The notes beneath the pieces are model-generated. The model saw only the letters and a list, made by a program, of their open reading frames with translations, did not search any database and was not told where the DNA came from. Of a stretch of 64,000 bases of DNA, positions 3-58,396 are shown piece by piece (positions within the stretch are counted from its first letter, which is position 1; every line of letters begins with the position of its first letter). The stretch lies in the sequence record PZ534515.1. One strand, 5' to 3'. A program made the translations under genes and the position numbers. This DNA comes from a phage.

Positions 3-5449
<5,447 letters not shown>

Positions 5450-6600: not shown

Positions 6601-6608
6601 TTTCTTTA

Positions 6609-6630
6609 CAGGGGCTTTATAGCCCCTTTT
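6609..6630 (+). terminator. intrinsic terminator-like hairpin
   Basis: ggggct-ttata-agcccc followed by tttt. Confidence 0.5.
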
Positions 6631-6646
6631 AAGAGGAAAATTTATA

Positions 6647-8995
6647 ATGGCAGATTACAAGTTGAGTGAATTAAACTCAATCGACACAATCCGTTCAGAC
6701 GACCTTCTTCATGTCAGGGTTAAAAAGAGACCTGAAATGTTAGGTGATGAAGACCGTCGAATGACCTATCAAGACTTCTTAGCATCTTTTAAACTTGAGA
6801 GATTTGTTCAGATTGCTGGCAGTACTATGACTGGTGACTTAGGTATTGTTAAGTTACTTTATGGTGGTAAGGCAGTATTTGACCCTACAGACTCTTCTGA
6901 GATTACTATGGGGGATGTTTTAAAGACTTTTAAAATCAATGCAAACGGTCTTAAACTAACTATTGCAGATGCTTCAAGGTCTGCAACTGTTTATCATACT
7001 CTGAATAAGCCAAGCCCTAATGAACTTGGGATGAGAACTAATGAAGAGAATGATGCAAGATATGCAAGACTTGCTGTTACAAACTCATTCCAAGCTAAAC
7101 AGAGTGTCGTAGCAAATGGTGAGCAGTTGACACTGAAGACCCCTGCGGGTGCAAGTGAGGCATACTCCGCTATTGTAGGTCGAAATGCCAATAATGATAA
7201 AACTTGGGCTGTTGGGAATCTAACTCAAGGAAGTCTTGATGTTCATCTCGAAAACAGTAGAGGTTCAAGAATCACTCTAGGTGCAATTGTGTCTGTTAAT
7301 AAGGCTCTCGCTATTACTGGACAGGTTCAACCTTCTGACTTCTCTAACTTAGATGCTAGATACTTCACTCAGACAGCAGCTAATCAGAGATTTGCACAGT
7401 TAACTGCTAATAATACTTTTAGTGGTTTAAATACATTCAGCAACGCTGTTAACATTAACTCTAATGCTGCTGCTATCATGCTGCAAAATAAATCTGCAAA
7501 TGAATCTTTATTCATCCTAGCAAAAGACAGTGAAAATAATAACTTGTGGTATATTGGTCAGGGTAGTGCAAGCTATGGTATCACATTACACGATTACAAG
7601 AACGACACCACGATGGTCTTAGACTCGTCTGGTGCTACATTCAACAAGCCTGTAAAAATCACTGGTCAAGTTCAACCTTCAGATTGGGCTAACATTGATT
7701 CAAGGTATGTTCCGAGTTCTCTGACAAGAGTTCTTGCAAGGACTGATTCAGCTAATACTTTCACTAAAGCACAGATTATCTATGCTGGCAGCGACAACCC
7801 TTTTAGACTACAGACAACGGTACAAGACTCTGGAATCTACATGTCTGCACATAATGCTGATGGGAACAGGAGATGGTGGTTGGGTATTGGTGGTGCTGGT
7901 CAAAACACAGTGGCACTTACCAATGATGTAACAAGAAAGTCAATCAATCTTAGTACTAATTTAGATGTGAATACACATGTGAATATTGTTGGGCAAGTAA
8001 GACCAAGTGATTTCTCTAACTTAGATGCTAGATACTTCACTCAGACAGCAGCTAACTCTAGATTTATGCTTGCTGGTGCAACTGGTGCATACACCTCAAC
8101 AGATTGGAATGCTGTTCCTTGGAACGCTAAATCTGGTCTGTATGACGTTCTTGTTGGTGGTGGTTCACAGATGATTCTGCACCTATATCAAGCACAAGGC
8201 TCATGCCCTTCTGCACAGTTGCGTTTCAACTATAAGAATGGTGGTATGTACTACAGGTCTTCAAGAGACGCATTTGGCTTCGAAGTAGATTGGTCTAAGA
8301 TTTACACAGAGGCTCAGAAACCAACCCCTTCAGAGATTGGTGCATACACTAAAACTGAAACTGACCAGAAGATTGCACAGGCAGTAAGTGACTCTACAGA
8401 CCTTAATAAAATCTATCCAGTGGGTATTGTGACATGGTTTAACAGTAATGTTGACCCTAATACAGCACTGCCTGGTCTAACTTGGACGTATCTGAACAAC
8501 GGTGTTGGTAGAACTATCAGAATTGCAGCAGCAAACGGTTCAGATGTTGCTACAACAGGTGGTTCAGATTCTGTGACGTTAGCTGTTGGTAACTTACCTT
8601 CACACACGCACAGTTTTTCTGCGACTACCTCATCGTTTGACTACGGAACAAAAAACACTAACACGACTGGTGCTCACACACACTCTGTAAGTGGCTCTAC
8701 TTCATCTGCTGGTCACCACAACCACGCTATCTCGTGGATTGGTCAGAACTCTACACACTATTCTGGTGGTGGTGGTGGTAGAATCGGTACAGGTCCGGGT
8801 TACACTGATGGGGGTGGTGACCACACCCACTCTGTAAGTGGTACTGCTGCTTCTGCTGGTAACCATGCTCACAGTGTTGGTATTGGTGCTCACAGCCACA
8901 CAGTAAGTGGTAACACTGGTGGTACAGGTTCTGGTTCAGCATTTAGTGTTACTAACCAATTCTACAAGTTAATGGCTTGGGTGAGAACTGCTTAA
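6647..8995 (+). CDS. large tail fibre protein with internal repeats and His-x-His tip
   Basis: 782 aa; three copies of the QVxPSDxxNxDxRY module; Gly-rich HxH C-terminal region like T4 distal fibre tips. Confidence 0.7.
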   Translation: MADYKLSELNSIDTIRSDDLLHVRVKKRPEMLGDEDRRMTYQDFLASFKLERFVQIAGSTMTGDLGIVKLLYGGKAVFDPTDSSEITMGDVLKTFKINANGLKLTIADASRSATVYHTLNKPSPNELGMRTNEENDARYARLAVTNSFQAKQSVVANGEQLTLKTPAGASEAYSAIVGRNANNDKTWAVGNLTQGSLDVHLENSRGSRITLGAIVSVNKALAITGQVQPSDFSNLDARYFTQTAANQRFAQLTANNTFSGLNTFSNAVNINSNAAAIMLQNKSANESLFILAKDSENNNLWYIGQGSASYGITLHDYKNDTTMVLDSSGATFNKPVKITGQVQPSDWANIDSRYVPSSLTRVLARTDSANTFTKAQIIYAGSDNPFRLQTTVQDSGIYMSAHNADGNRRWWLGIGGAGQNTVALTNDVTRKSINLSTNLDVNTHVNIVGQVRPSDFSNLDARYFTQTAANSRFMLAGATGAYTSTDWNAVPWNAKSGLYDVLVGGGSQMILHLYQAQGSCPSAQLRFNYKNGGMYYRSSRDAFGFEVDWSKIYTEAQKPTPSEIGAYTKTETDQKIAQAVSDSTDLNKIYPVGIVTWFNSNVDPNTALPGLTWTYLNNGVGRTIRIAAANGSDVATTGGSDSVTLAVGNLPSHTHSFSATTSSFDYGTKNTNTTGAHTHSVSGSTSSAGHHNHAISWIGQNSTHYSGGGGGRIGTGPGYTDGGGDHTHSVSGTAASAGNHAHSVGIGAHSHTVSGNTGGTGSGSAFSVTNQFYKLMAWVRTA

Positions 8996-42275: not shown

Positions 42276-44642
42276 ATGCGCATGGTAAATGACCACGCAG
42301 AAGTGATTAAGAGTTCAACTTCTTTAGAGACGTCTCAAGCACAGATTACAATGACACCCGAAATGTTCAGCCTTTTAAGTTCTGGTGTATACACCTTTAA
42401 AGAAAGGGCAGTTATTCGTGAACTGTCATGTAACGCAGTAGATGCTCAGAAAGAGGCTGGAAAAGAGAACATTCCGTTCCATGTGCATTTACCTACTCGT
42501 TTTGAGCCTTACTTTGAAGTTCGTGATTTTGGAACTGGATTGACTCATGATAAAGTTATGAGTTTGTATCTAAACTATGGGGCTTCTACGAAGAATGACT
42601 CTAATGACTACATTGGTGCAATGGGTATCGGCTCAAAATCCCCATTTGCAATTGCTCAGTCATTCACAGTGTCCAGTTATGTTGATGGTGTTGTTAATAA
42701 GTACTCTGTTTATCTTGAGAATGGTATTCCTCAAGTAACTAAGCTGACCACCAACCCAACAAAAGAACCTAATGGTTTAGCTGTACGTGTAGCAGTTGCT
42801 GACCATCGTATCTCAAAGTTCTTTGAAGAGGCTGGTCACGTATACTCATACTTTGCTGTAAAACCGGAAAGTAATATCGAGTATGACGATGTATTATCAG
42901 ATATGAATGTCATTGCCCGTGAAGAAGGTGTTTATGATGCCATGATTCATAAGCAAAGCTGGCGTTCTAGTGGTAACAGGACAGAGTTTAATGTGGTGAT
43001 GGGTAACATTGCCTACCCTGTTAACATGGAAGCATTACTTGGTGATGATTTCTTTAAAGTCTTGCCAGAATTTTTCCGTAGGAGCGTAGACCTTGTAAAC
43101 ATCTACATGCCTATTGGCTCAGTTGCTATTGCAGCTTCTCGTGAAGCATTGCAGATGAATGACACGACAAAAAATGTTATCATTGAGGCTACTAAAAAGA
43201 TAACTGAAGCAATTACAAAGGATGTTATCAAGAAAGTTAACAGCCAACCTACACTCATGGATGCTGCACAGGCTTATGCTGAGTTACGTTTGAACTCACG
43301 AGAGATGTTTAATGCTGTGTGTCCAAAGCTAGAGTGGGGAGGTGTTAAGCTTGATTCTCTGGAAGAAGAATTACTAAATATTCGTCGTGGAATTATCTAT
43401 GCAGAAGACGGCTCAGTCATCTATGAACGTGACGGTAAAGGTAATATTAAGGTTGATAGGAACGGAAACAACATCCCTAAAGTAGATTATCTTTATGACC
43501 CAGTTGCTTATGTTAAGTTCAACTCTTTAGAGAGTAAGATTCGTGCGACATCACTTTCCTACACTCAAGAGGCAAGTATGTTCAATATTTTTGGCGCAAT
43601 GCGTAAAAGCCAAATTGAACAGTTTTTGTTTGTTATAAATGACCGTCGCAATAAAAACGGTACTGAGAAGACTGTAGGACGCAATCAAATCTTGCGTGGT
43701 GCATGTCGAGACTATGCCAGTGAGTCAAGTCTGTTTCACAGATACAATGGTATCGTCTTTGTATTCTCTACTGAGAAAGAGTTAGACGACCTAATCAATC
43801 TACACAAACTTGATAAAAGCTTGTTAAAGATTGTAAAGATGTCTGATAAGGAACATCATTATCAGCGTAAAGAAGCTGTAAGAGGTGTTGTAAAACTCTG
43901 GAAAGCTGTTCCAGCAGAAGGTGTAGCTTCCTATAAAGAGGTGTCAGAAGACTTAGACACAATTGAAGAGCCTCAACTTTATATCAAGGCAGTAGGTGAT
44001 ACTGTTGATGGTGAATGTTTTTGCTCGTCTCCAGAAGATGTAGCTAAGTCAGTTGCCAATGTCATTGAAAAGACAGTCTATGTTTTCCGAAAAGCAAATT
44101 GGAAAAAGATACCAGAAGACTGGATTGAAGTAGATGAGAAGCTCTTGAACGACAGCTTAACTGATGTTCACTGGATTAATCATAACAGGTATATGACACG
44201 TATCTATATGAATGGTGTCCTAGACCTTACAAGCAGTTGGATTATTGCCAGAAACTTTACGTTCAATAACAGGAAGATTTCTCGCGGTTATTGCTATTCA
44301 CGAGATACAAACAAAACTATCTTCTTAGAAGGTAATGAAGATGCTGTTGAGGCAATGTTTGGTAAAATCCAATACGTTGCTGCACCGTTTGCATACACTT
44401 ACACTATTAGTCGGTTGCAAACTTTGAAAGAGTGCCTTGACAATGATACAAAGCTGTACAAGAAAATTAAGAAAGCTGGTGACCGTATGGTCATTAAGGT
44501 GACAAACTATCTTTCAAAAAGAAAACAAGAAAACTTCTTGCTTTCTCATTTAGATTGGAATAAAGTGTCACCCATCGAAGTGAGTAAGTTCTTAGGCTTT
44601 GATGTGAAGTGTGTTCCAGAAGGGACTACAATTTACGATTAA
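42276..44642 (+). CDS. rIIA: rIIA-like protein (GHKL/Hsp90-type ATPase domain)
   Basis: N-terminal GHKL motifs RELSCNAVDA, RDFGTGLTHD, IGAMGIGSKSPF; 788 aa; followed by an rIIB-sized gene. Confidence 0.65.
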   Translation: MRMVNDHAEVIKSSTSLETSQAQITMTPEMFSLLSSGVYTFKERAVIRELSCNAVDAQKEAGKENIPFHVHLPTRFEPYFEVRDFGTGLTHDKVMSLYLNYGASTKNDSNDYIGAMGIGSKSPFAIAQSFTVSSYVDGVVNKYSVYLENGIPQVTKLTTNPTKEPNGLAVRVAVADHRISKFFEEAGHVYSYFAVKPESNIEYDDVLSDMNVIAREEGVYDAMIHKQSWRSSGNRTEFNVVMGNIAYPVNMEALLGDDFFKVLPEFFRRSVDLVNIYMPIGSVAIAASREALQMNDTTKNVIIEATKKITEAITKDVIKKVNSQPTLMDAAQAYAELRLNSREMFNAVCPKLEWGGVKLDSLEEELLNIRRGIIYAEDGSVIYERDGKGNIKVDRNGNNIPKVDYLYDPVAYVKFNSLESKIRATSLSYTQEASMFNIFGAMRKSQIEQFLFVINDRRNKNGTEKTVGRNQILRGACRDYASESSLFHRYNGIVFVFSTEKELDDLINLHKLDKSLLKIVKMSDKEHHYQRKEAVRGVVKLWKAVPAEGVASYKEVSEDLDTIEEPQLYIKAVGDTVDGECFCSSPEDVAKSVANVIEKTVYVFRKANWKKIPEDWIEVDEKLLNDSLTDVHWINHNRYMTRIYMNGVLDLTSSWIIARNFTFNNRKISRGYCYSRDTNKTIFLEGNEDAVEAMFGKIQYVAAPFAYTYTISRLQTLKECLDNDTKLYKKIKKAGDRMVIKVTNYLSKRKQENFLLSHLDWNKVSPIEVSKFLGFDVKCVPEGTTIYD

Positions 44643-44647
44643 AGTGT

Positions 44648-44677
44648 TTGACAAGGGGCTTCAAAGCCCCTTAGAAT
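44648..44677 (+). promoter_or_regulatory. promoter with hairpin occupying the spacer
   Basis: TTGACA, spacer aggggcttcaaagcccc (perfect hairpin), then TAGAAT. Confidence 0.5.
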
Positions 44678-44721
44678 AGCCTCACAAAATGATTTATTAA
44701 CTAACAAGAGAGAGTAATAAG

Positions 44722-49967: not shown

Positions 49968-50040
49968 GAAACTCTGTAGAATATTCACAATAGACTAAGC
50001 CTTTCTTATCTGGTAAATTTTCAGGTAAGGAGGGCTTTTT

Positions 50041-50231
50041 CATTTTAGAATTGTGCAGGTAGAGTTCTGTAGAGAAATCTGTAGAGAGAATTTTGAACTC
50101 CAAAGAGAAAATTTATTTTCAAACTGTGCAGGTAATCTCCAAAGAGCTTTTTCATTTTCAAAACGTGCAGAACCCACTCAGGTCGGGCAAGAAAAATCAT
50201 TTTAGAATTGTGCAGGTAGGTGGGTGCAGGT
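50041..50231 (+). repeat. four direct copies of an approximately 21-bp motif (cattttagaattgtgcaggta)
   Basis: Copies at 50041..50061, 50114..50134, 50152..50171 (degenerate) and 50198..50218, plus nested ctgtagaga x2. Confidence 0.6.
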
Positions 50232-50394
50232 GGGAATGTCGCCATTTCTCACAAGGCTACCACATCTGGAAATAAAAGTCAACAGAAAAATTTGTAGCGG
50301 ATTGAAAAATAATTATTGATTGTAGTTCTGTTTTGTGGTAGTCGCGCGCACCCGTTTCATTACAATTCTTGCAAAAATATTTTTAAAATTCCTA

Positions 50395-50423
50395 TTGACT
50401 CTTTGAGTATGGTTATCTAATAT
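50395..50423 (+). promoter_or_regulatory. strong sigma70-like promoter heading the small-gene array
   Basis: TTGACT, 17-nt spacer, TAATAT; followed by hairpin gggcaagcaagccc and leader ctaaactggagaatccaaaATG. Confidence 0.55.
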
Positions 50424-50472
50424 TTGCATCAGACGGGCAAGCAAGCCCACTTCCTAAACTGGAGAATCCAAA

Positions 50473-50679
50473 ATGATGTACAGTCGCGAATTGATGGTTA
50501 CAACCAACGTTAACACAAAGGCAAAACGTTTTTATATGCAAGTGTGCGGCGCATGGCGTAGAATATCAGAAGCTGATTATTGCAACTATGTAGAAACGGC
50601 AATTAACTCTAATTGCTACCTAACAAAGAATACAAAGCGACATATAAAACAGACAGCGGTTTACTATTACGATATATAA
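50473..50679 (+). CDS. small early-type protein 1
   Basis: 68 aa ORF behind promoter and leader. Confidence 0.45.
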   Translation: MMYSRELMVTTNVNTKAKRFYMQVCGAWRRISEADYCNYVETAINSNCYLTKNTKRHIKQTAVYYYDI

Positions 50680-50767
50680 AAAGTACTTTACAAGGGGCTT
50701 AAAAGTTGATATCTTAAGCCCCAGATAAAGAGCTTTACTAACTTACCTTAAACTAGGAGATTCTAAA

Positions 50768-51148
50768 ATGGCTTATCGTGCACCGAAATTCATCAATAAA
50801 GACAACTTCCGCAACGCACTGGAGAAGTCACTTGATGAAAAATTTAACGGTAAATTGATTATTGTTCACGCATTCAATTTTAAGTATGATATTAATGGGA
50901 ATAAAATCAACCATTACACGGCAACCATGATAGATGGTACACTATCAAGTGAAAAAGCCGTACTGAATGCACTTGCTGGACGCGGTAAAAACCTGATAAA
51001 ATGTGATAAGCGACGTTATCAGGGTGGCGCATATGGTTATGATGATGCTGTTTACCATCTTGAAAACATGGGCTATTCAGTGGAAAAAGCTGGAGTGTCT
51101 CAAATAATCGGCAGTGACGGCTATGTGACAATTTTCAAAATTAACTAA
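50768..51148 (+). CDS. small early-type protein 2
   Basis: 126 aa ORF behind type A cassette. Confidence 0.5.
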   Translation: MAYRAPKFINKDNFRNALEKSLDEKFNGKLIIVHAFNFKYDINGNKINHYTATMIDGTLSSEKAVLNALAGRGKNLIKCDKRRYQGGAYGYDDAVYHLENMGYSVEKAGVSQIIGSDGYVTIFKIN

Positions 51149-51236
51149 TAAAGTACTTTACAGGGGGCTTATAGTTCGATAAAGTAAGCCCCAGATAAAG
51201 AGCTTTACCACTAAATCCTAAATTGGAGATTCAAAA

Positions 51237-51527
51237 ATGGCTATTATTAAAAACGTTGTAATTCCTGCAAAAACTCGTGATGACGCTCGCATCATGGCGA
51301 AAAAGTTAGGCGGGAAAGTGGTTGACAACGGAAAACAAACTGCTGTAAGGTGGAACGTGAAGGCGGATAAACAAATGAATTTAAAAAATTCACCAATAAA
51401 CTTTTTTACATGTGTAAACACTATCGGGAAAACGAATGTATACACTAAAAAGGCATATATCAGACGCATCGCCATGACGTCACCTATTCGCACAATGAGA
51501 AGTCATGCAAAGCTGAAAATTAAGTAA
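51237..51527 (+). CDS. small early-type protein 3
   Basis: 96 aa ORF behind type A cassette. Confidence 0.5.
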   Translation: MAIIKNVVIPAKTRDDARIMAKKLGGKVVDNGKQTAVRWNVKADKQMNLKNSPINFFTCVNTIGKTNVYTKKAYIRRIAMTSPIRTMRSHAKLKIK

Positions 51528-51617
51528 TAGAGTACTTTACAGGGGGCTTAAAAGCTGATATCTTAAGCCCCAGATAAAGAGCTTTACCACTCAATCCTTA
51601 AACTAGGAGATTCAAAA

Positions 51618-52130
51618 ATGAAAACTGTAGACGCTACCTTTGAAGTTGTAAAAGAAAAATTTTCCATCATTTACGAAGCTGTCAATTGCTACGAAGCAAG
51701 CCATAATCTTGATAATTGGAAGTTTACAGATGACCATCAAGGCGGTGTGACTATTAAAAACCCCAACTGTCAGCGTAATGGATTTAAATATGCAATTCCT
51801 TTACATTACAGCCTTAAACAGCTTTCAATTGACTATGCAAAACAAGGCCGGGAAAATCCATCGAAAGAGGCTTACATCAGCTTACAGAAAGAACTAGAAA
51901 GAGATTTAGAGGCTTCAGAATATAACATCGCCGCGAAAGTTGTAGATGCAAACGGTAGCACGGTTTTAGAGAGTTTTTATATTGGTTATGCTTTCGATTG
52001 GTGCTACAGTGACGGCGATGATTTAGATGACAGACTAAAAGAGGAAGTGAACAACGCAGACGCAGAATCTGAAGTATTAGAACGCTTGGAAGCATTAAAA
52101 GATTCAGTGATGAATATCTTTAAGAACTAA
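51618..52130 (+). CDS. small early-type protein 4
   Basis: 170 aa ORF behind type A cassette. Confidence 0.5.
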   Translation: MKTVDATFEVVKEKFSIIYEAVNCYEASHNLDNWKFTDDHQGGVTIKNPNCQRNGFKYAIPLHYSLKQLSIDYAKQGRENPSKEAYISLQKELERDLEASEYNIAAKVVDANGSTVLESFYIGYAFDWCYSDGDDLDDRLKEEVNNADAESEVLERLEALKDSVMNIFKN

Positions 52131-52222
52131 ATAGATTTCTTTACACGGGGCTAACAAGCTGGTAGGATAGCCCCAGATAAAGAGATTTATCAAATAAAGC
52201 CCTTAAACTAGGAGATTCAAAA

Positions 52223-52519
52223 ATGAAATTATCAAATCAAGTGCGTGAAAATCTAAGCAAATTACTCAATAAAATTGATTTTATCGAGACATCAAGAAAT
52301 AGTCATGATGTTATGGAATGGTTACACGGCAAAATAAAAGGCCGTCGCGTAGTAATTTGCTTATGGAATAGTTGCAGGGAGTATAAAAAGCCTGTATTGC
52401 AAATTAATGTTTATGATGATACTTTTAAAAGTCCTGTTAAATCTGAAAGTGATTTATTAGAAGCTTATGAGATAACTGTAAATGGTAAAGTATCACGCAG
52501 AGAGGTAACACCATGCTAA
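52223..52519 (+). CDS. small early-type protein 5
   Basis: 98 aa ORF behind type A cassette. Confidence 0.5.
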   Translation: MKLSNQVRENLSKLLNKIDFIETSRNSHDVMEWLHGKIKGRRVVICLWNSCREYKKPVLQINVYDDTFKSPVKSESDLLEAYEITVNGKVSRREVTPC

Positions 52520-52845
52520 TGATGGGCATCACTGCAATCATCGCCATTATAGCACTTTATAAGGCTTACAGCGCCTACAATCTGGCAAGTAAGGCAATCA
52601 CGCAACAGGTCAATAATAGCCTTGTAATGAGCTTTCTGGAGCGTTTAAGTGATGAGCAAATAAAGCGGCTAGAAATGAGCTTCAGATTCAAAGCGAAAAC
52701 CTATCAGATAAGTGATATCTTCAAAGATGATTTTCAGTTAGTCGATGATTATAATTCACTGATAAATGCTTTAAATATCAGTGACTTAAAAGACTACTAC
52801 GCTGTAATTGTTCAAGAATTGAGCAAACGAAAAAATTTCTCTTGA
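52513..52845 (+). CDS. small membrane protein 6
   Basis: 110 aa, N-terminal TM-like segment GITAIIAIIALY; translationally coupled. Confidence 0.45.
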   Translation: MLMMGITAIIAIIALYKAYSAYNLASKAITQQVNNSLVMSFLERLSDEQIKRLEMSFRFKAKTYQISDIFKDDFQLVDDYNSLINALNISDLKDYYAVIVQELSKRKNFS

Positions 52846-52932
52846 TTTTGGTTTTTAAAACAAGTAAATTACTAATCAACGGGAGGGATGACCTCCCCAC
52901 TAAGTAAAGTCCTTAAACTAGGAGATTAGAAA

Positions 52933-53205
52933 ATGTATACTACTAACAACGGTCGTACTCTAAATGTAACTTTGCGCCACTATGTGAACGGTGTAATGCA
53001 CTTCGAGGATTTACAAGCCGAACAACATATCTTAGATTGGCAACTTGCAGGACTCCAAAAAACTGCTACAGGATACGGGAAAAAGATTCCAACCAGTTGG
53101 AAAGTATACTACGAAGGCCGTTTGCGCAGAATTTATCAAGATGTGCATAGCAATAGCGCAACAAGTTACATCATGGTAAAAGGCAAAAAGCTGCATTTAG
53201 TATAA
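52933..53205 (+). CDS. small early-type protein 7
   Basis: 90 aa ORF behind type B cassette. Confidence 0.5.
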   Translation: MYTTNNGRTLNVTLRHYVNGVMHFEDLQAEQHILDWQLAGLQKTATGYGKKIPTSWKVYYEGRLRRIYQDVHSNSATSYIMVKGKKLHLV

Positions 53206-53291
53206 AGTACTTTACAAGGGGCTTATAGTTCGATAAAGTAAGCCCCAGATAAAGAGCTTTACCACTAAATCCTAAATTGGAGAACTTAAAA

Positions 53292-53696
53292 ATGGCTATT
53301 AATAATCGCGAGTTATCAATCTTAAAAGCACGTTTGACCGTTAACCGGATTAATGTTATTACGTCATCAGCACCGGACGAAACATTGCACAACATTATTG
53401 GGAAGATTCAAAGCGTTATCTTAGACGTTGAAAACGTAAAAAACTCATTGGCTGACGTTGCAGCAGGTATCACGCTAGACGGTGCACAATATGAAATGAC
53501 CGACATGTTAGGCAAATCTAAGGTAATGAATAAAGAGCTTGATTTGAAAATGTTTCGATTTGCTGTTAAAGTGTGGCTATCTGTCGAGTATGACGCTAAT
53601 TTTGCAATCGCTGACTTTTTCGCAACATGGTTGCAACGTAACTTAACAAATCACGATTTTCGTAATATCTGTGATGCAATTTACGCAGAACTATAA
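53292..53696 (+). CDS. small early-type protein 8
   Basis: Start at the ATG that follows the conserved leader (track start 53277 lies within the leader). Confidence 0.5.
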   Translation: MAINNRELSILKARLTVNRINVITSSAPDETLHNIIGKIQSVILDVENVKNSLADVAAGITLDGAQYEMTDMLGKSKVMNKELDLKMFRFAVKVWLSVEYDANFAIADFFATWLQRNLTNHDFRNICDAIYAEL

Positions 53697-53797
53697 AAAT
53701 TTTTGTTGACACTGGTTTTCAGATAGATTAAATTACACATCAACGGGGCTGGAATGACCTTCCCCACTAAATAAAGTCCTAAACTGGAGATTCAAAA

Positions 53798-54001
53798 ATG
53801 GCTATTATTAACGGTTTAACCATTGAAACTACACACATCAAAGATATTAAAGTTGGTGATGTAGTCCTTTCCCACGGCGTAGAGAAAACTGTTACTGCAA
53901 AGGATATCAAAGAGGATTCTTTCATGGGTAGGACTCTCTTCGGTGATTCTTATTGCTTAGGTTATCTTGCAGTTTTAAAAGTTGTCAAAAATAACCGATA
54001 A
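53798..54001 (+). CDS. small early-type protein 9
   Basis: 67 aa ORF behind type B cassette with TTGACA-17-TAAATT promoter at 53705. Confidence 0.5.
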   Translation: MAIINGLTIETTHIKDIKVGDVVLSHGVEKTVTAKDIKEDSFMGRTLFGDSYCLGYLAVLKVVKNNR

Positions 54002-54093
54002 AGTACTTTACAAGGGGCTTAAAAGTTGATATCTTAAGCCCCAGATAAAGAGCTTTACCACTAAATCAAGTCCTTAAACTAGGAGATTCAAAA

Positions 54094-54636
54094 ATGAAAT
54101 GCTTTCACGGTACTACTCAAGAAAATTTTATCAACCTGATTAATAACGGTGATAAGCCATCAGGTGCATGGAATTGTTCGGATATGGATGGGAATTTTTA
54201 CGTTTATCCAGAAAATAAAATCTATGGCGACGATGAGGAAGAGATAATCTCTGAAGGTATCCAGCAAGCTCTGGGCAATGCCGCTATCACCGCAGCTTTC
54301 CAGATGAAAACCCAAAATATTGTTATCTTAGAACTTGATATTCCAGAAGATGAGTTAAACGATGATTATTCTTGTGATAATATGTCTGGCGTGGCAAGTT
54401 TTACAGAATATTTCGATTTAAACTGGATTAAAAAGGTTTACACCACTGAATTTAATGCTATGTTTTCACCATTTTGTCTGCCTTCACTGGATAACCCGAA
54501 TTTAAGCTATATTGACGAGTCTCTGGAACTTCTCGCTAAAAGCGTTCAACAGTCCGACAGTATTCAAGTTTTTTGTGACATCATGGACACACTGACGGGA
54601 AACATCATAGAAAGAGATTTAAAGAGCTTTTTCTGA
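54094..54636 (+). CDS. small early-type protein 10 (acidic)
   Basis: 180 aa ORF behind type A cassette. Confidence 0.5.
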   Translation: MKCFHGTTQENFINLINNGDKPSGAWNCSDMDGNFYVYPENKIYGDDEEEIISEGIQQALGNAAITAAFQMKTQNIVILELDIPEDELNDDYSCDNMSGVASFTEYFDLNWIKKVYTTEFNAMFSPFCLPSLDNPNLSYIDESLELLAKSVQQSDSIQVFCDIMDTLTGNIIERDLKSFF

Positions 54637-54702
54637 AAACCTATACAATCACCTTATAAACACTATTCAGCCCCTGTAAGGGGCTTTTAAGAGGCTTAAA
54701 TC

Positions 54703-54936
54703 ATGCTTACAACTGTTTATCTCATCCTTTCTATTTGTAACGGTCATTCATGTGATTTTAAAGGGCTTGAGGAGTTTACAGGAAGTAAAGAAAATGCCGT
54801 TCAGGTCTGTCAGATAGCAAGACAAGACTACCCCGCCAGTGATGACATTCAGTGTTATTTTAAGACAGAAGACAGCGACGGCGTTTATTTTGACAGCGTT
54901 GATGGTCAATATGAAATTATCATTGAAAAAGACTAG
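54703..54936 (+). CDS. small early-type protein 11
   Basis: 77 aa ORF; preceded by hairpin agcccctgtaaggggctttt rather than a cassette. Confidence 0.45.
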   Translation: MLTTVYLILSICNGHSCDFKGLEEFTGSKENAVQVCQIARQDYPASDDIQCYFKTEDSDGVYFDSVDGQYEIIIEKD

Positions 54937-55025
54937 ACAAGCCTGATAAAAGTCTGTAAATTGTCAATCAACGGGAGGGATGACCTCCCAACTAAACAAA
55001 GTCCTTAAACTAGGAGATTCAAAAA

Positions 55026-55366
55026 TGGCTTATGTAACCGTAATTACCAATAAAGAAGATTCATCTTGGTCAACTCAAGTAAGTGACAAGATGTCACCTA
55101 TGCAGTGCCTAAAATACTTTGAGCAATGGAACAAAGGTGAGGAAACAAGCCCCTTTCAAGTAATGCAGGTTATTCATACAGACAACGAAGGGAATAAAAC
55201 TGTTTTGAATAGTGAGTACTATGCAACCAGATTCGAAACGAGAAGTAAAGCAATGAGGCTCTTACGTGAATCCGGTTACTCTCATATTGCCGCGCTAATC
55301 TGGGATGACCTCCTAAAAAGTCAGCGTATCAGCTATGTAAAACCTGAAAAAATATTTATCAGCTAA
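55026..55366 (+). CDS. small early-type protein 12
   Basis: Start at the leader ATG 55026 (track start 54980 is an in-frame read-through of the leader). Confidence 0.5.
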
Positions 55367-55585
55367 TCAATAACTTACAAAAAACTTTTAAAAAAGTGTT
55401 GACAATGCCCCTTGACATTGGTAACTTTGTTCGAGGGGGTTTATCTAAAAGGATTCACTTAAAAGATTCTTTATAGATAAACTTAAAAAATTGCTTGCAA
55501 TCAGCTATCAAAACAAGTAAATTACTAATCAACGGGAGGGATAACCTCCCCACTAAGTAAAGTCCTTAAACTAGGAGATTCAAAA

Positions 55586-56116
55586 ATGAACAAATTTCAA
55601 GCTATCAACTACATTCGCTCAATCCATGTAATGTCAAAGCCTGTTAAAGACACCTATGAATTTCGTTGCAATGGTGTACACTTTGCAACCATCACTAAAT
55701 CAGAAAACGGGACTTATTACATTCATCGTCGTAATGTTGCAACCGTTGTAGTCTCTCACTTTATGCAAGCCGTTGCGGAACTCCTCCCGATGTTTTTAGG
55801 GCTTTACTTGGATGAGTGTAAGAATATCCGTAACCACGTTAAAAGCCTTTTAAACGGTTATAAAATGGCTTATGAACGTTCTATTCATAATTTGAACAAG
55901 TTCTATAAAGCCCCTGAAAACACCGTATCAATGGCATACGCTGTAAAGGGTGAGGCGGTGAGTCTCTTCGAAGTGGAAGAAATCGAGCTTTATGACCATC
56001 GCCCCAATGGTTACGCTAAAACTCTCGGTGAAGGTTTAACGTTTAACATCAAGAACTTAGAAAAAACTTTAAGAGATATTGAAAAAGATATTGACGAGAC
56101 AATCAAAAATCTGTAA
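55586..56116 (+). CDS. small early-type protein 13
   Basis: 176 aa ORF behind type B cassette. Confidence 0.5.
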   Translation: MNKFQAINYIRSIHVMSKPVKDTYEFRCNGVHFATITKSENGTYYIHRRNVATVVVSHFMQAVAELLPMFLGLYLDECKNIRNHVKSLLNGYKMAYERSIHNLNKFYKAPENTVSMAYAVKGEAVSLFEVEEIELYDHRPNGYAKTLGEGLTFNIKNLEKTLRDIEKDIDETIKNL

Positions 56117-56181
56117 ATTATCAATCAACGGGAGGGATAACCTCCCCACTAAGTAAAGTCCTTAAACTAGGAGTTATCAAG

Positions 56182-56445
56182 ATGGAAAACGTAGAATTAA
56201 CCACACTTTTACAAATTGCAACCGATAAAGAAAACGTAGCATTAATTCACCGCATCGAAAGTGATTTGTTCAATGGTGAAATCATCAAAGAGTCTTACGA
56301 AGTTGTCGGATTCAAAGATGGTAAAACGTTTGGATTCTTTGACCTCGACAAAGGCAACGCTGTTACAAATTACGATGTTTTATCTTGTGAGATTCTTACA
56401 AAATACAACGAAAAAAGGCTTGCAACATACACCAACATGCAGTAA
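56182..56445 (+). CDS. small early-type protein 14
   Basis: 87 aa ORF behind type B cassette. Confidence 0.5.
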   Translation: MENVELTTLLQIATDKENVALIHRIESDLFNGEIIKESYEVVGFKDGKTFGFFDLDKGNAVTNYDVLSCEILTKYNEKRLATYTNMQ

Positions 56446-56511
56446 ATTACTAATCAACGGGAGGTAATGACCTCCCCACTAAACAAAGTCCTTAAACTAG
56501 GAGATTCAAAA

Positions 56512-56760
56512 ATGGCAACTATCCGCGCAACTGTTAACGAATTTGGCTTCTACTCTCTGGATGTTAAATTTGACCTTGTAGGCACTGACAACGCCTTTGA
56601 AATGGTGAAAGGTCTTATCAGTCAGACCATCAAAGACTATAATCCTTCTGATGAGTTCTGGAAAGAAACAAAACAGGAAGTTCTTAAAGATGGTTACACT
56701 TTTCACTATTGGGGAGAAAAAATCGTCTCCCTGTACTACAACAAACAAGATTATAACTAA
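56512..56760 (+). CDS. small early-type protein 15
   Basis: Start at the leader ATG 56512 (track start 56467 is leader read-through). Confidence 0.5.
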   Translation: MATIRATVNEFGFYSLDVKFDLVGTDNAFEMVKGLISQTIKDYNPSDEFWKETKQEVLKDGYTFHYWGEKIVSLYYNKQDYN

Positions 56761-56798
56761 TCGACGCAGCGGGGCTAAATAGCCCCAGATACCTTTAC

Positions 56799-56824
56799 AG
56801 CCCCTTTCCAATAGGGGCTTTTTT
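56799..56824 (+). terminator. strong intrinsic terminator ending the small-gene array
   Basis: agcccct-ttccaat-aggggct followed by tttttt; preceded by a second hairpin ggggctaaatagcccc. Confidence 0.7.
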
Positions 56825-56825
56825 A

Positions 56826-58353
56826 CGTCTTATGAAATGCCTATACAATCCTTTCCCTTTCCTTTCCAGAATCTTACTAGACCTTAAAAAGCAATAACTC
56901 TATAGCTTACTCTATAGCCTTTTATCAAATCAACTTAAATATAAGCCCATAACCCGAAAGGGAAGGGCAACCATTTAAACGCTCTATAAAGCCCTATAAC
57001 AGCCTTATCAACCCAACTTAAGGGATTGCATTACCTCACCCTTAAAAGCCCTTTATAAAGCTTTCTAGAGCCTTAAAAGAATCTTATAAGGTTGTAAGCT
57101 TTATCATCTCGTTAGTATCTTATGAACTACTAGAAAGGGCTTGTTAGTGTTTTAAAAGTATGTTATAGGGGCTATAAAGTTGCTTAAAAGTAGCTTAAAA
57201 GTTACGTAAATGCTAGCCCCCTTAACATTTTCTTAACAATTTCTTAACAAACCCTACATAGTTATGCTTTTAAGGCACTTGTTAGCAACTTGTTAGCCCC
57301 TTGTTAAATCTCTGTTAAAACCATGTAAAAGCCTTGTAAGAGTCTTTGACATAGCCTTTAAAGCCCCTGTAAAGCCCTATAAAGAGCTTTCTACATAGTT
57401 GGGGTGTAATTACTAGGAAGAGACTTAAAAGAGCTTACAAGGAGCTATAGAGAGCTTTTAAGAGGGCTATTTAGAGAATCACTAAGAAAGAGAGGGAACG
57501 ATAAGAAAAGAGATAGTGACCATGTTAATAGCTTGTTAAAAAGATTAAACACTTGTTAGGAACTTGTTAATTATCTTAACAAAATAACTCTTTAAAATTA
57601 ACTTGTTAGCTCTTGTTAGTCATCTGTTAAGCATCTGTAAAGACTATTCAGCACTTGTTAGAAAACTGTTAAGCCCTTGTTAGTTCTGTTAAGAAACTGT
57701 TAAGACCTCTGAAGAGATGTTAAGAAGATGTAGCAACTGTTAAGAGATTGTTAATGATATTTTAAAATTCTGCAAAGGGGATGTTACAGGGATGTTAAGG
57801 GCTACCAAGCAGATATACATCTTCTACAGATATTTTTGAGTTCCTTCAAAGACCCTAAAAAATGACTTGATAGTCCTATTTTATAAAAATTTTAAAATTC
57901 TGAATAATTACCTAGACAGTCTTTTAAAAATACAGGCATAAACAGGCTTATAAGATACCTTGTTAGTACCGTGTTAGACCTTGTGAGATAAGGTCTGTAA
58001 AGATATTCCTGTTAAGTTTGTTAAAACAGTCTATATAGAGGCTTAGTAATACCTAGTGAACACCTATAGAGGGTAACATAGCTGACATAGAGATTAAGAG
58101 GTGTATAGGGGCTTCTAAGAGTGTGTAGATGTATGGTTAAGGTGATTGTATAGGTTGTTAAGAAGGCTTGTTAGAAGAGTGTTTAGAAGGGCTATACAGA
58201 GGGGCTATTAAGACCACTAGATAGTTACTAAGATACTATATAGTACTATATAACTATATATAGAGAGTAAGCTTAAGGAGGTTGTTAAGAAGGATAGATA
58301 TTTTATTCACATATGATGGTGACCCAGAGGTTGGGACAACCGATAAAATTTTA
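56826..58353. repeat. ORF-free repeat-dense region (phased cttgttag/ctgttaag units, ctataaag units)
   Basis: No ORF of 60 aa or more on either strand over about 1.5 kb; 57600..57760 carries about 12 ttgttag/tgttaag units at roughly 10-11 bp spacing. Confidence 0.6.
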
Positions 58354-58361
58354 TAAAAATT

Positions 58362-58388
58362 AAAAAGCCCCCAATTAAGGAGGCTCTT
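58362..58388 (-). terminator. intrinsic terminator for the minus-strand operon
   Basis: Reverse complement reads agcctcc-ttaatt-gggggct then ttttt, identical to the terminator at 21792. Confidence 0.55.
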
Positions 58389-58396
58389 AAGATATT

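Follow-up and report, generated by a model that had tools for sequence, protein, structure and literature searches.

Why would a phage set near-identical spacers in front of one small gene after another when the genes themselves have nothing in common, and what do such spacers do? The question arises at positions 50395-56824 of a 64,000-nucleotide stretch of phage sequence record PZ534515.1 (the window), which is a Felixounavirus, that is, a Felix O1-like myophage; BPS15Q2 and SapYZU01 are ~90% identical to it. An original prediction made from the letters alone had proposed that standardized promoter/leader spacers each precede an unrelated small gene here. That picture was borne out: the elements it named lie where it placed them, and the spacers have the form of sigma70-type units. 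Its count of twelve holds for six type A and six type B cassettes, but a 13th, divergent B-like cassette before gene 1 (the entry cassette) had been missed.

Gene inventory and cassette positions

The region encodes 15 small ORFs of 67 to 180 amino acids on the + strand (Table 1). Their products are mutually dissimilar in an all-versus-all BLASTP comparison, no Pfam domain was found in any of the 15, and each matches a separate PHROG, all of unknown function. Longer ORFs from 54980 and 56467 open at an ATG inside a type B hairpin loop; the true starts are 55025 and 56512, because the leader places them there, and g8 begins at ATG 53292, not at TTG 53277. Two genes are without a cassette of their own, g6, which overlaps g5, and g11, which follows a terminator-like hairpin. 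The idea that such a region houses anti-defense or host shut-off factors is weakly addressed by these data: a structure model of g10 suggests an ADP-ribosyltransferase-like fold, and the Bas63 orthologue of this gene is conditionally important (PMC11482910).

None of the array patterns is expected by chance. Motifs CTTTACANGGGGCT and TAAATTNNNNATCAACGGG each have 6 matches against 0.00 expected and CCTWAAAYTRGGAG has 9 against 0.20; copies of the cassette motifs occur on the + strand only, between 50.4 and 56.6 kb, and are absent from the rest of the 64 kb.

Table 1. Genes, cassettes and terminators of the array (window coordinates; all on the + strand; energies in kcal/mol)
Feature	Position	Details
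Terminator t13 (Felix O1 name)	49997-50046	Intrinsic; 17-pair stem, then T run; closes upstream unit, ahead of array (PMC3185647, table)
Entry cassette, divergent B-like	50395-50472	-35 TTGACT 50395-50400; 17-bp spacing; -10 TAATAT 50418-50423; hairpin GGGCaagcaaGCCC (GGGC..GCCC) 50435-50448; leader CCTAAACTGGAG
g1	50473-50679	68 aa; phrog_5293
Type A cassette 1	50680-50767	TTTACA 50687-50692; -10 TATCTT 50710-50715, TGn-extended; long hairpin 50680-50736, -20.2, z -3.4; leader present
g2	50768-51148	126 aa; phrog_4495
Type A cassette 2	51149-51236	TTTACA 51157-51162; TAAAGT 51180-51185; -22.4, z -4.1
g3	51237-51527	96 aa; phrog_5089
Type A cassette 3	51528-51617	TTTACA 51536-51541; TATCTT 51559-51564; -22.0, z -3.9
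g4	51618-52130	170 aa; phrog_4190
Type A cassette 4 (subtype)	52131-52222	TTTACA 52140-52145; TAGGAT 52163-52168; -22.2, z -4.8; outer stem ATAGATTT/AGATTTAT covaries with standard TAAAGT/GCTTTA
g5	52223-52519	98 aa; one cassette common to g5 and g6 (52223-52845)
g6	52513-52845	110 aa; 7-nt overlap with g5
Type B cassette 1	52842-52932	-35 TTGATT 52842-52847, overlaps g6 stop codon; -10 TAAATT 52865-52870; hairpin GGGAGGgatgaCCTCCC 52881-52897; leader
g7	52933-53205	90 aa; phrog_3436
Type A cassette 5	53206-53291	TTTACA 53211-53216; TAAAGT 53234-53239; -21.6, z -5.5
g8	53292-53696	134 aa; phrog_4327
Type B cassette 2	53697-53797	-35 TTGACA 53706-53711; TAAATT 53729-53734; degenerate hairpin GGGGCTGGaatgaCCTTCCCC 53745-53765
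g9	53798-54001	67 aa; phrog_3623
Type A cassette 6	54002-54093	TTTACA 54007-54012; TATCTT 54030-54035; -21.1, z -4.7
g10	54094-54636	180 aa; orthologue of Bas63 g107
Spacer without A or B cassette	54637-54702	Hairpin GCCCCTgtaAGGGGC and TTTT (54670-54688), then SD AAGAGG; equivalent site in wV8 annotated as rho-independent terminator
g11	54703-54936	77 aa; phrog_4640
Type B cassette 3	54934-55024	-35 TAGACA 54934-54939, overlaps g11 stop codon; TAAATT 54957-54962; hairpin 54973-54989
g12	55025-55366	113 aa; phrog_4318
Type B cassette 4	55495-55585	3' part of 219-nt spacer; -35 TTGCAA 55495-55500; TAAATT 55518-55523; hairpin 55534-55550
g13	55586-56116	176 aa; phrog_4725
Type B cassette 5	56091-56181	-35 TTGACG 56091-56096, inside g13; TAAATT 56114-56119, overlaps g13 stop TAA; hairpin 56130-56146; leader variant GGAGTTATCAAGATG
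g14	56182-56445	87 aa; phrog_7022
Type B cassette 6	56420-56511	-35 TTGCAA 56420-56425; TAAATT 56443-56448, overlaps g14 stop codon; hairpin GGGAGGTaatgACCTCCC 56459-56476
g15	56512-56760	82 aa; phrog_4559
Type A remnant, promoter-less	56771-56799	GGGGCTAaaTAGCCCC-AGATAcCTTTACA; present in H12 too
Terminator t23 (Felix O1 name)	56799-56825	Intrinsic; closes array (PMC3185647)

Promoters and leaders

Type A cassettes have the predicted promoter layout TTTACA-17-TAnnnT. They were compared across 51 unique copies from 15 phages in four genera of the Ounavirinae (Felixounavirus, including the window, Mooglevirus, Suspvirus, and Kolesnikvirus), among which CTTTACA and the T, A, and T of the -10 are invariant and the surrounding loop varies. 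TTTACA-16..18-TAnnnT fits 77 of 78 unique type A copies, with 17 bp in 70; the fitting copies have 12 different -10 hexamers, and TG stands at -15/-14 in 38 of them. A consensus promoter scan of the window detected all six type A promoters and three of the six of type B. An alternative type A -10, (T)AAAGT lying over the upstream stop codon, would place the hairpin in the 5' UTR; its -35 is weak (at least 4/6 matches in 15 of 72 copies) and TGn is present in 13 of 72.

In type B, a -35, a 17-bp spacer, and TAAATT are followed after 10 nt by a GC hairpin, so that the predicted mRNA would begin with about 3 unpaired nucleotides. These promoters had been described as either TG-extended or supplied with a TTGACA-like -35. 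The latter is true of all six, each of which matches TTGACA in at least 4 of 6 positions 17 bp from the -10, but the TG (cTGTAAATT) abuts the hexamer and is thus one base off the canonical TGn position.

Both types have in common a 3' module that is longer than the leader and runs from CCACTAA onward, with the form CCACTAA...CCT(T)AAACT(A)GGAG, 8 nt, and then ATG. The leader had been said to be the same everywhere; 9 of the 12 cassettes do have one identical form (CCTTAAACTAGGAG), whereas in the remaining three and before gene 1 it reads CCTAAA(C/T)TGGAG.

Structure of the hairpins

A 9-bp inverted repeat had been reported in type A and interpreted as a plausible operator for a dimeric regulator. 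In the window the inner stem has 9 bp in three copies, 8 bp plus a U.G pair in two, and 7 bp in one, and the whole dyad is far longer, with arms of 23 to 33 nt that are 72 to 79% complementary. RNAalifold resolved three nested pairing blocks. Paired cells make up 95.8%, compared with 91.4% in shuffles and at most 59% in slid registers. The covariation score was 0.136, against 0.068 in shuffles, and was matched by none of 500. Compensatory G-C to U-A changes occur at two pairs, in 10 and 8 sequences, counts that represent nonindependent events because the copies are related by descent and gene conversion. There are 87 G.U cells but only 15 A.C cells. Given these compensatory changes and this bias, the element is asymmetric as DNA and points to a structure of the sense strand. 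Folding also favors the + strand, in 39 of 51 copies of type A and 31 of 45 of type B, although strand bias alone is no proof of a role in RNA, since G.T pairs form in single-stranded DNA too. The window copies of type A fold at -20 to -22 kcal/mol (z -3.4 to -5.5). Judged by sequence comparison, the dyad of type A forms the tip of a three-block hairpin of ~20 bp, a nucleic acid structure of the sense strand rather than a symmetric operator.

Type B stems are very diverse in sequence, yet pairing is always kept (GGGAGG/CCTCCC, GGGGAGGG/CCTTCCCC, GGGC/GCCC, GGGGG/CCCCC), including a switch between GGTTGA/TCAACC and GGTTCA/TGAACC. Such freedom of sequence, together with the short unpaired 5' end, fits the suggestion that this hairpin lies at the start of the mRNA. 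Because no U tract follows a type A or type B hairpin in the window, neither is a canonical intrinsic terminator.

Comparison among relatives

Arrays in relatives contain 9 to 20 genes drawn from 36 families, and 192 of 256 intergenic gaps, at 55 to 110 nt, are as long as one cassette. What distinguishes related phages is the presence or absence of whole units, each a gene with its cassette. In Felix O1, g9-g11 and g14 are missing and the cassettes at both junctions are chimeric, with one crossover after the -10 and the other between hairpin and leader; in Michonne one gene is duplicated in tandem and one cassette is empty. The two cassette types keep mostly to fixed slots, but the type at a given slot can vary between phages, as at g2, g10, and g12, each of which is preceded by either type, depending on the phage. 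The entry cassette is conserved, and hairpin variants are common to several slots within one genome, a sign of homogenization. The region is modular in these whole-unit differences, but the term hyper-modular overstates the case: gene order is largely conserved across the four genera, and turnover is therefore modest.

In Felix O1, ORFs 16, 20, 21, and 22 peak at 5 min by RT-PCR and ORFs 17, 19, and 23 at 25 min, a coarse and mixed timing (PMC3185647) that agrees, for some array genes, with the proposal of an early region. We found no mapped transcript 5' or 3' ends in the Felix O1 and Felixounavirus promoter and transcript literature. In Felix O1, wV8, and Mordin the repeats are recorded only as "direct repeats" or "SAS-like." At the level of sequence, the cassettes match point by point the definition of the PeSL (promoter-early stem-loop) already described for T4-like phages, here in a Felix O1-like phage. 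Promoter and terminator activities of PeSLs have been demonstrated experimentally in RB49/phi1 (PMC2839356).

Proposed model and alternatives

The repeats, their pattern of conservation, the base-pair covariation, and the cassette-bounded indels were observed directly, and they support the model, to which we assign a probability of roughly 0.7, that the locus is an array of PeSL-type expression cassettes (promoter, hairpin, leader) shuffled by homologous recombination. Each unit would extend from the stop codon of one gene to the ATG of the next. Promoter activity, start sites, early timing, and hairpin roles are predictions of the model, in which host sigma70 RNA polymerase would read both promoter forms, TTTACA-17-TAnnnT (TGn-extended in about half of copies) in type A and a TTGACA-like hexamer, 17 bp, and TAAATT in type B. 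The G+C-rich hairpin would act as a sense-strand structure, and the common leader would give every gene the same strong ribosome-binding site.

The two hairpins would act differently. Transcription of type B is predicted to start ~3 nt before the hairpin, yielding an mRNA with a 5'-terminal stem-loop, and such stem-loops protect E. coli mRNAs from 5'-end-dependent decay. The type A promoter would be buried in its three-block hairpin of ~60 nt and ~20 bp: the 5' arm would contain the -35, and the -10 would lie across the apical loop and 3' arm. Its own transcript would start just past the inner stem and so be without the hairpin, which would form solely in transcripts that read through from upstream. 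In these it would delimit or insulate the preceding message at its 3' end, whether as an attenuator, a processing site, or a 3' stabilizer.

How far could the hairpins be explained otherwise? Type A might be mainly an RNase III-type processing site, its embedded promoter being secondary, that cuts read-through polycistronic RNA into monocistronic mRNAs ending in a stabilizing hairpin; RNase III-type sites lie between the early genes of T7. The ~20-bp helix, which is interrupted by internal loops of 1x1 and 3x3 and capped by an 11-nt apical loop, sits exactly between stop codon and leader and is followed by no U tract, its outer blocks covary, and a promoter-less remnant is kept at the end of the array. 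We nevertheless consider this reading doubtful, since 20 bp broken by internal loops is the lower limit for substrates and since a promoter, but not processing, accounts for the constant TA..T of the loop and for TTTACA 17 bp away; one hairpin could, all the same, serve in both ways. Joint control of the six type A promoters by a dimeric regulator, of phage or host origin, is improbable. The dyad does overlap the core promoter, the usual place for a repressor, the flanking CTTTA and TAAAG blocks and GATAAAGA are invariant in four genera, and UAB_Phi87 ORF111, located elsewhere in relatives, is annotated as a putative transcriptional regulator. As DNA, however, the arms are asymmetric, in keeping with the overall G.U bias, one pair being T.G in 29 and another in 44 of the 51 copies; they change in concert with pairing kept (GGGG/CCCC to GGTG/CACC), the inner stem varies among 7, 8, and 9 bp, and pairing in three blocks over ~57 nt far exceeds a dimer site. 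The type B hairpins, unrelated in sequence, follow the same logic.

Types A and B might instead be two temporal classes, one of which (type A as "middle"?) needs a phage-encoded modifier of host RNA polymerase. It is true that two sharply distinct templates persist side by side across genera, type A has a nonconsensus -35 and a weak -10, and Felix O1 array genes peak at two times. This division is nonetheless unlikely: each type includes genes with either peak (type A, ORFs 16 and 20 at 5 min and ORF17 at 25 min; type B, ORFs 21 and 22 at 5 min and ORFs 19 and 23 at 25 min), three slots accept either type, both types fit sigma70 rules, and the Felix O1 authors did not find a polymerase-modifying factor (PMC3185647). 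We give very little credence to the hairpins being single-stranded-DNA recombination sites, like integron attC, for a dedicated phage recombinase, with expression a side function. They are imperfect ~60-nt palindromes with unpaired bases and one-strand bias, the unit of change is one gene and one cassette, empty and tandem cassettes occur, and those who described the PeSL raised, as a speculation, a recombination protein that binds the stem-loop (PMC2839356). Against this, the annotations of the relatives examined show neither an integrase nor a recombinase next to the array, gene order is syntenic, and the differing crossover points at the Felix O1 junctions are what general homologous recombination would give. 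Least credible of all is that the repeats are functionless leftovers of a single ancestral spacer that was duplicated again and again; their similarity could be due to gene conversion or recent duplication, which would not account for position-specific invariance of the -35, the T/A/T of the -10, GATAAAGA, and the SD amid free variation elsewhere, compensatory changes across four genera, and 17-bp spacing in 70 of 77 copies.

The model of PeSL-type cassettes also bears on how these arrays evolve. Near-identical units of ~90 bp flank every gene, which leads us to expect homologous recombination between them. Genes would be deleted, duplicated, replaced, or re-headed, one gene and cassette at a time, and the same process would homogenize the cassettes within a genome. 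The plug-in design of the expression unit would thus also let genes be gained, lost, and swapped by recombination.

Identity and organization of the array

The array matches 255 phage records, nearly all of them Felix O1-like (Ounavirinae, Felixounavirus), with the best matches being Salmonella phages BPS15Q2 and SapYZU01 (~90% identity, 99% of the query covered). It is the counterpart of Felix O1 ORFs 15 to 23, bracketed by the published Felix O1 terminators t13 and t23, with a macro-domain "phosphatase" gene directly upstream. The repeats reported in the original prediction were confirmed at copy numbers far over shuffle expectation: the type A core CTTTACANGGGGCT and the type B core TAAATTNNNNATCAACGGG occur six times each, against 0.00 expected, and the leader CCTWAAAYTRGGAG nine times, against 0.20, all on the plus strand and within the array, with none elsewhere in the 64 kb. 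The leader had been described as the same in every cassette, which holds for nine of twelve, the other three carrying the variant CCTAAA(C/T)TGGAG. Spacers run 65 to 101 nt from stop codon to ATG, and the upstream stop codon lies inside the outer stem in type A and over the -35 or -10 in four of the six type B cassettes (1, 3, 5, and 6).

The fifteen genes, g1 to g15, are as small, dissimilar, and domain-less as had been claimed. Comparison of the 15 proteins with one another revealed no resemblance, a Pfam search of all of them found no domain, and PHROGs placed each in its own family, all of unknown function.

The Felix O1 genome paper lists the two cassette types as 57-bp (type A) and 39-bp (type B) "direct repeats," outside the predicted promoters, and its authors stated that secondary promoters and the organization and temporal control of transcription were unknown (PMC3185647). 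The cassettes are annotated as DR_1 to DR_9 in the GenBank record of phage wV8, and the repeats go unmentioned in the wV8 paper. A literature search found no transcript-end data for Felix O1-like phages.

Features of the array, its surroundings, and related loci (positions are in the window unless another record or locus is named)
Feature	Position	Description
Array	50395-56824	Plus strand; fifteen ORFs (g1 to g15) of 67-180 aa
g1		Headed by a divergent B-like entry cassette: TTGACT-17-TAATAT, GGGC..GCCC hairpin, leader of the common kind
g2-g5, g8, g10		Headed by type A cassettes
g7, g9, g12-g15		Headed by type B cassettes
g6		Overlaps g5
g11		Preceded by a terminator-like hairpin, GCCCCTgtaAGGGGC then TTTT
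Promoter and hairpin	6595-6650	CTTTACA-GGGGCTttatAGCCCC-TTTT at 6604; GGGGCT/AGCCCC hairpin
Promoter and hairpin	44640-44720	TTGACA-GGGGCTTcaaAGCCCC-TAGAAT; GGGGCT/AGCCCC hairpin; before a gene starting near 44716
Noncoding stretch before array	49968-50472	505 bp
Intrinsic terminator (scan)	49997-50037	Plus strand
Repeats	50031-50215	After the terminator; four ~40-bp repeats ending TGTGCAG(GTA)
Motif CCTATACAATC, first copy	54642-54652	~20 nt before the internal terminator-like hairpin
U-tract terminator	54670-54688	Proposed unit boundary
ORF from hairpin-loop ATG	54980-55024	Starts at 54980
5' extra of g12-g13 spacer	55367-55494	TTGACA (55399)-17-TAACTT (55422)
Inverted repeat, g12-g13 spacer	55439-55482	18-nt arms, 83% complementary
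Leader, example	55561-55577	Pyrimidine tract and Shine-Dalgarno (SD) sequence
ORF from hairpin-loop ATG	56467-56511	Starts at 56467
U-tract terminator	56799-56825	Proposed unit boundary; 56799-56819 in the plus-strand scan
Promoter-like sequence	56822-56849	TTTACG-16-TACAAT
Noncoding stretch after array	56826-58390	1.5 kb; then convergent genes on the minus strand
Motif CCTATACAATC, second copy	56833-56843	Just past the terminal terminator
Michonne duplication	L004 7349-7520	Tandem g3-homologue duplicate and "empty" cassette
Mordin tandem cassettes	L005 2091-2200	Two type A cassettes, no gene between
adrianh_77	L011 6294-6680	Loop-ATG start annotated
Array in GU169904.1	129114-135080	Labeled Staphylococcus phage SA1 (147 kb); 89.6% identity

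Type A cassettes carry a predicted promoter inside a long hairpin

The type A dyad was originally described as a 9-bp stem; the inner stems are 7 to 9 bp, and the whole is far longer, reaching from the upstream gene's stop codon to the C that opens the shared leader (CCACTAA...). Its layout is TAAAGT-a-CTTTA-caa-GGGGCTTAA ... TTAAGCCCC-aga-TAAAG-a-GCTTTA, with arms of 23 to 33 nt that are 72 to 79% complementary; the stem begins 1 to 2 nt past the -35, and the -10 falls in the loop and the 3' arm. Folded as RNA, the six window copies form a three-block hairpin of -20.2 to -22.4 kcal/mol (z, -3.4 to -5.5).

Our collection of type A copies numbered 94, drawn from 16 phages that represent four genera (Felixounavirus, Mooglevirus, Suspvirus, and Kolesnikvirus), and the 51 unique copies present in 15 of them were aligned. 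Three elements show no variation: CTTTACA; the T, A, and T positions of a hexamer that follows 17 bp later; and GATAAAGA. The remainder of the loop varies freely. The pattern TTTACA-16..18-TAnnnT fits 77 of 78 unique copies, with a 17-bp spacing in 70, and the -10 takes the form of twelve different hexamers, with TG at -15/-14 in 38 copies. That precisely the positions required by sigma70 are invariant in an otherwise variable unpaired loop is the strongest sequence argument that type A is a promoter, whose predicted start site would be the A of AGATAAAG, just beyond the inner stem.

RNAalifold recovered the three nested blocks from the alignment. In this structure 95.8% of cells are paired, compared to 91.4% in shuffles, and no more than 59% pair once the partner columns are slid. 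The outer block shows compensatory changes from G-C to U-A in 10 sequences, a subtype of the g5 slot; the inner block of the 8 Kolesnikvirus copies, also by compensatory change, has GGTG/CACC in place of GGGG/CCCC; and two pairs are mostly U.G (29 of 51 and 44 of 51). The covariation score is 0.136 versus 0.068 in shuffles, none of 500 of which reached 0.136, and the cells hold 87 G.U versus 15 A.C, counts that overstate the number of independent events because the copies are related by descent and conversion. Folding favors the plus strand over its complement in 39 of the 51 copies, a bias to be read with the caveat that G.T pairs can form in single-stranded DNA too. We regard the hairpin and its strand as established; that it acts as an RNA we infer.

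A (T)AAAGT lying over the stop codon could serve as the -10 in place of the TAnnnT hexamer, a minor possibility in which a -35 with at least 4 of 6 matches is available in only 15 of 72 copies and a TGn extension in just 13 of 72. The original prediction had seen in the inverted repeat a plausible operator for a dimeric regulator. A symmetric protein site would not tolerate G.T positions, because G.T is A.C on the opposite strand, and G.T breaks the symmetry in most copies; this asymmetry, the compensatory changes between the arms, a stem length that varies from 7 to 9 bp, and pairing that extends over ~20 bp argue against a palindromic operator, and that reading was rejected. The sequence GTACTTTACA resembles the MotA box TGCTTtA. 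In T4, box and hexamer are ~12 nt apart, a spacing that the 19 nt from GTACTTTACA to any TAnnnT hexamer does not fit, and the MotA-box reading was rejected.

As hairpins at gene boundaries, the cassettes might also be taken for rho-independent terminators. After the type A hairpin comes AGAUAAAGAG, and after the type B hairpin CACUAAGUAAAG; since neither includes a U tract, neither hairpin is a canonical terminator. A plus-strand scan for intrinsic terminators found only two, one before the array and one at its end, and none at the cassettes. Rfam covariance models gave three chance-level hits (E, 0.1 to 0.8), far under gathering scores and none on a cassette. The reading we retain for type A is that of a predicted promoter embedded in a strand-specific hairpin.

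A promoter with a GGGGCT/AGCCCC hairpin occurs at two further places in the window (see the table), so the design is not confined to the array.

Type B cassettes and the shared leader

In every one of the six type B copies, TAAATT is preceded at exactly 17 bp by a -35-like hexamer that matches TTGACA at 4 or more of 6 positions; the TG extension originally reported is one base out of register. With the TTTACA-17-TAnnnT of type A, these predicted promoters favor the proposal that standard promoter and leader units precede unrelated genes.

A G+C-rich hairpin begins 10 nt past the type B -10 (...ATCAAC) in all copies. Its position is fixed throughout the relatives, and its stem sequences are many and unrelated: GGGAGG/CCTCCC, GGGGAGGG/CCTTCCCC (one G.U pair), GGGC/GCCC, GGGGC/GCCCC, GGGGG/CCCCC, GGGGAAG/CTTCCCC, and GGTTGA/TCAACC versus GGTTCA/TGAACC. 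Of 45 unique type B hairpins, 31 fold more stably on the plus strand. With transcription predicted to start 7 to 8 nt past the -10, the mRNA would open with ~3 unpaired nucleotides and then the stem, in agreement with the original suggestion that this hairpin may stabilize the mRNA 5' end. In Escherichia coli, a stem-loop only a few nucleotides from the start of the message is known to give protection from 5'-end-dependent decay.

The hairpin loop contains an ATG (gATGAcc) that opens longer in-frame ORFs at two places in the window; ORFs starting at these loop ATGs are artifacts. At least one GenBank record annotates such a start, for adrianh_77 of phage adrianh, and it is probably wrong because the leader and SD lie 45 nt downstream.

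In all 13 leaders, a pyrimidine tract 8 to 10 nt upstream of the SD could pair with it (UCCU-UAAACU-AGGA), and the leaders of Erwinia phages keep the pairing with different sequences (CCUU-AUA-AAGG and CCUC-AAA-GAGG). A weak hairpin occluding the SD is suggested by these sequences, and only suggested.

Cassettes as substrates for recombination

Among GenBank phages, the type A cassette is found at 1,994 places in 289 records and the type B cassette at 1,269 places in 242 records, all of them Ounavirinae save a few oddly labeled ones; Erwinia and Hafnia phages retain only the promoter/hairpin portion of type A. A Felix O1-type array in a record labeled Staphylococcus phage SA1, and a match in one Campylobacter-labeled record, probably reflect mixed or mislabeled assemblies.

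Seventeen arrays comprised 9 to 20 genes each, from 36 families, and among nine Felixounavirus arrays seven families were constant and eleven variable. Intergenic gaps were 55 to 110 nt, the size of one cassette, in 192 of 256 cases, which implies that genes are gained and lost one at a time, each together with one cassette. Junctions in Felix O1 itself bear out the original view of a modular region. This phage is without g9 to g11, and the sole cassette before its g12 homologue is chimeric, with a 5' part (through the hairpin) from the g9 slot, the cassette position heading g9, and a 3' part from the g12 slot; it is also without g14, and the leftover cassette passes from g14-slot to g15-slot sequence directly after the -10. 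The "empty" cassette of Michonne, whose leader and ATG are fused directly to the next CTTTACA, the tandem g3-homologue duplicate of the same phage, and the tandem cassettes of Mordin look like scars of cassette-cassette recombination. Genes are also found behind the other template: g2 is headed by type B in wV8 and H12, g12 by type A in wV8, Michonne, and SUSP1, and g10 by type B in SFPB. Hairpin variants are common to several slots per genome, as with GGGAGGTAATAGCCTCCCC at three slots of adrianh, which indicates intragenomic homogenization. Turnover is moderate, because gene order is largely conserved across genera.

Comparison with known systems

The closest known system is the PeSL (promoter-early stem-loop) cassette, described in the T4-like phages RB49/phi1, PST, and nt-1 (Arbiol et al. 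2010, PMC2839356; Comeau et al. 2014, PMC4122927). A PeSL starts at a stop codon, continues through an AT-rich stretch and a sigma70 promoter, and ends in an SD and ATG; its GGGG...CCCC stem-loop, which includes G.T pairs, occupies one of three places, between the -35 and -10, on top of the -10, or immediately downstream of it (PMC2839356). PeSLs are found in clusters ahead of small uncharacterized genes, and modular shuffling takes place through them (PMC2839356; PMC4122927). "Mini-circles" excised through recombination of one cassette with another are also described (Arbiol 2010, PMC2839356). Experiments have demonstrated both promoter and terminator activity: transcription is ended or attenuated at the stem-loop, and lacZ assays show strong promoter activity in vivo (Arbiol 2010, PMC2839356). 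Neither paper mentions Felix O1-like phages (PMC2839356, PMC4122927).

The array has the same organization. Types A and B both have predicted sigma70-like -35 and -10 elements downstream of AT-rich stretches, such as aaaaaaTTGCTTGCAA and tttttaaaattcctaTTGACT; the stem-loop lies between the -35 and -10 or over the -10 in type A and just past the -10 in type B; and the spacers run as units from a stop codon to an SD and start codon. The cassettes are grouped in a variable region, ahead of small genes that have no known function, with the caveat that many array genes are conserved across genera, and their indels are cassette bounded with internal crossovers, as at the Felix O1 junctions, in Michonne, and in the swaps at g2, g10, and g12. 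The PeSLs are known from T4-like myoviruses, and the array belongs to Ounavirinae with genomes of 85 to 90 kb, a difference of scope and not of mechanism. No sequence similarity was found between the array cassettes and the T4-like cassettes tested here. PeSLs of T4-like phages form a loose family, whereas the array has two tight templates with a long shared leader; its type A stem-loop is lengthened to a ~20-bp three-block hairpin engulfing the whole promoter; and its plasticity is lower, genes and slots being largely syntenic in four genera. Judged from sequence, the array is a set of PeSL-type cassettes in Ounavirinae, with a twist of its own in the placing of a promoter within a conserved ~20-bp strand-specific hairpin.

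The Mordin genome announcement had noticed the leader and likened it to the start-associated sequences (SAS) of cluster K mycobacteriophages (PMC4611695). Both SAS/ESAS and the leader are short conserved sequences directly before the start codons of many small genes in one genome arm. Inverted repeats accompany the ESAS upstream. SAS/ESAS differ in sequence, host, and phage group, and the array leader, unlike SAS, is plainly an SD with its upstream context, tied to recognizable sigma70 promoters.

In T4, many strong host-polymerase promoters (UP, -35, TGn, and -10) drive small nonessential early genes, among them ADP-ribosyltransferases, and GGAG is the typical SD of early messages and the target of RegB (Hinton 2010, PMC2988021). 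The array resembles this early region in its apparently strong host-type promoters, small genes, and GGAG SD, but T4 early promoters are not embedded in a common ~90-bp cassette. No homologues of MotA, AsiA, Alt, or RegB were identified in Felix O1-like phages (PMC3185647).

Type A hairpins also appear similar to those of T7, being long, imperfect, intergenic, and free of a U tract. In T7, long imperfect RNase III processing hairpins without U tracts separate the early cistrons transcribed by host polymerase. The T7 early genes have three upstream promoters in common, whereas the array has one per gene. Integrons and morons, like the array, add or lose small unrelated genes singly, and the attC site of integrons, like the array hairpins, is an imperfect palindrome with folding on one strand. 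Morons bring their own promoter and terminator, but their flanks are not near-identical as those of the array are; integrons rely on a single Pc, whereas each array gene has its own promoter. None of the relatives examined has an annotated integrase or recombinase beside the array, and reading of the six window cassettes revealed no attC R/L boxes (RYYYAAC/GTTRRRY).

Sequences flanking the array

Short repeats with a period of 11 bp (CTTGTTAAG, CTGTAAAGCC, and CTATAAAGCC) crowd the noncoding stretch after the array, and some of them are similar, on the minus strand, to the type A half-site CTTTACAGGGGCT. This stretch, which has a counterpart of similar size in every relative examined, may be an origin or an array of protein-binding sites. 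The ~40-bp repeats in the noncoding stretch before the array are conserved in Citrobacter phage Michonne. All arrays of Felixounavirus, Mooglevirus, and Suspvirus retain a g12-g13 spacer of 195 to 223 nt, whose extra 5' sequence may be a small RNA or a regulatory site. The motif CCTATACAATC, present twice, could be a -10 (TACAAT).

Proposed mechanism and significance

Drawing on the anatomy, conservation, and covariation of the cassettes and their cassette-bounded rearrangements, we propose that host sigma70 polymerase would start independently at 13 cassettes soon after infection and that the common leader would give every unrelated gene an equally strong ribosome-binding site. Type B messages would be shielded by their 5' stem-loop. 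The long type A hairpin would form only in RNA read through from upstream, where it might insulate, process, or stabilize the 3' end of the preceding message, the DNA encoding it being the next promoter. Larger units would be bounded by the two U-tract terminators, and homologous recombination between near-identical cassettes would add, remove, duplicate, and rehead genes. Felix O1 RT-PCR (PMC3185647) supports early timing only partially: four ORFs (16, 20, 21, and 22) peaked at 5 min and three (17, 19, and 23) at 25 min; the peaks do not correlate with cassette type, and a temporal split between types A and B was rejected.

A more far-reaching interpretation, to which we give roughly a one-in-four chance, is that the ~60 nt of type A serve two uses, as a sigma70 promoter in double-stranded DNA and, in read-through RNA, as a hairpin that ends, processes, or insulates the prior message. 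Small genes would thereby become self-contained, uniformly expressed monocistronic modules, and the "socket" would have been kept across Ounavirinae as an entry point for early genes. A further possibility is that the nascent hairpin, or folding of the nontemplate strand, directly gates the embedded promoter and so couples upstream read-through to downstream initiation.

Salmonella and E. coli typing, biocontrol, and therapy all make wide use of Felix O1-like phages. Reading their "direct repeats" as promoter/hairpin/leader cassettes yields a testable transcription map of ~6.4 kb with 13 predicted starts, and the cassettes are compact, ready-made parts for engineering these phages. The variable array genes become priority candidates for host-takeover or counterdefense functions; structure prediction, applied to g10 only, suggests that this variable gene encodes an ADP-ribosyltransferase-like protein. 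The PeSL concept is extended beyond the T4-like phages, which supports the view of standard expression sockets as a general means for virulent phages to pick up and try out small accessory genes.
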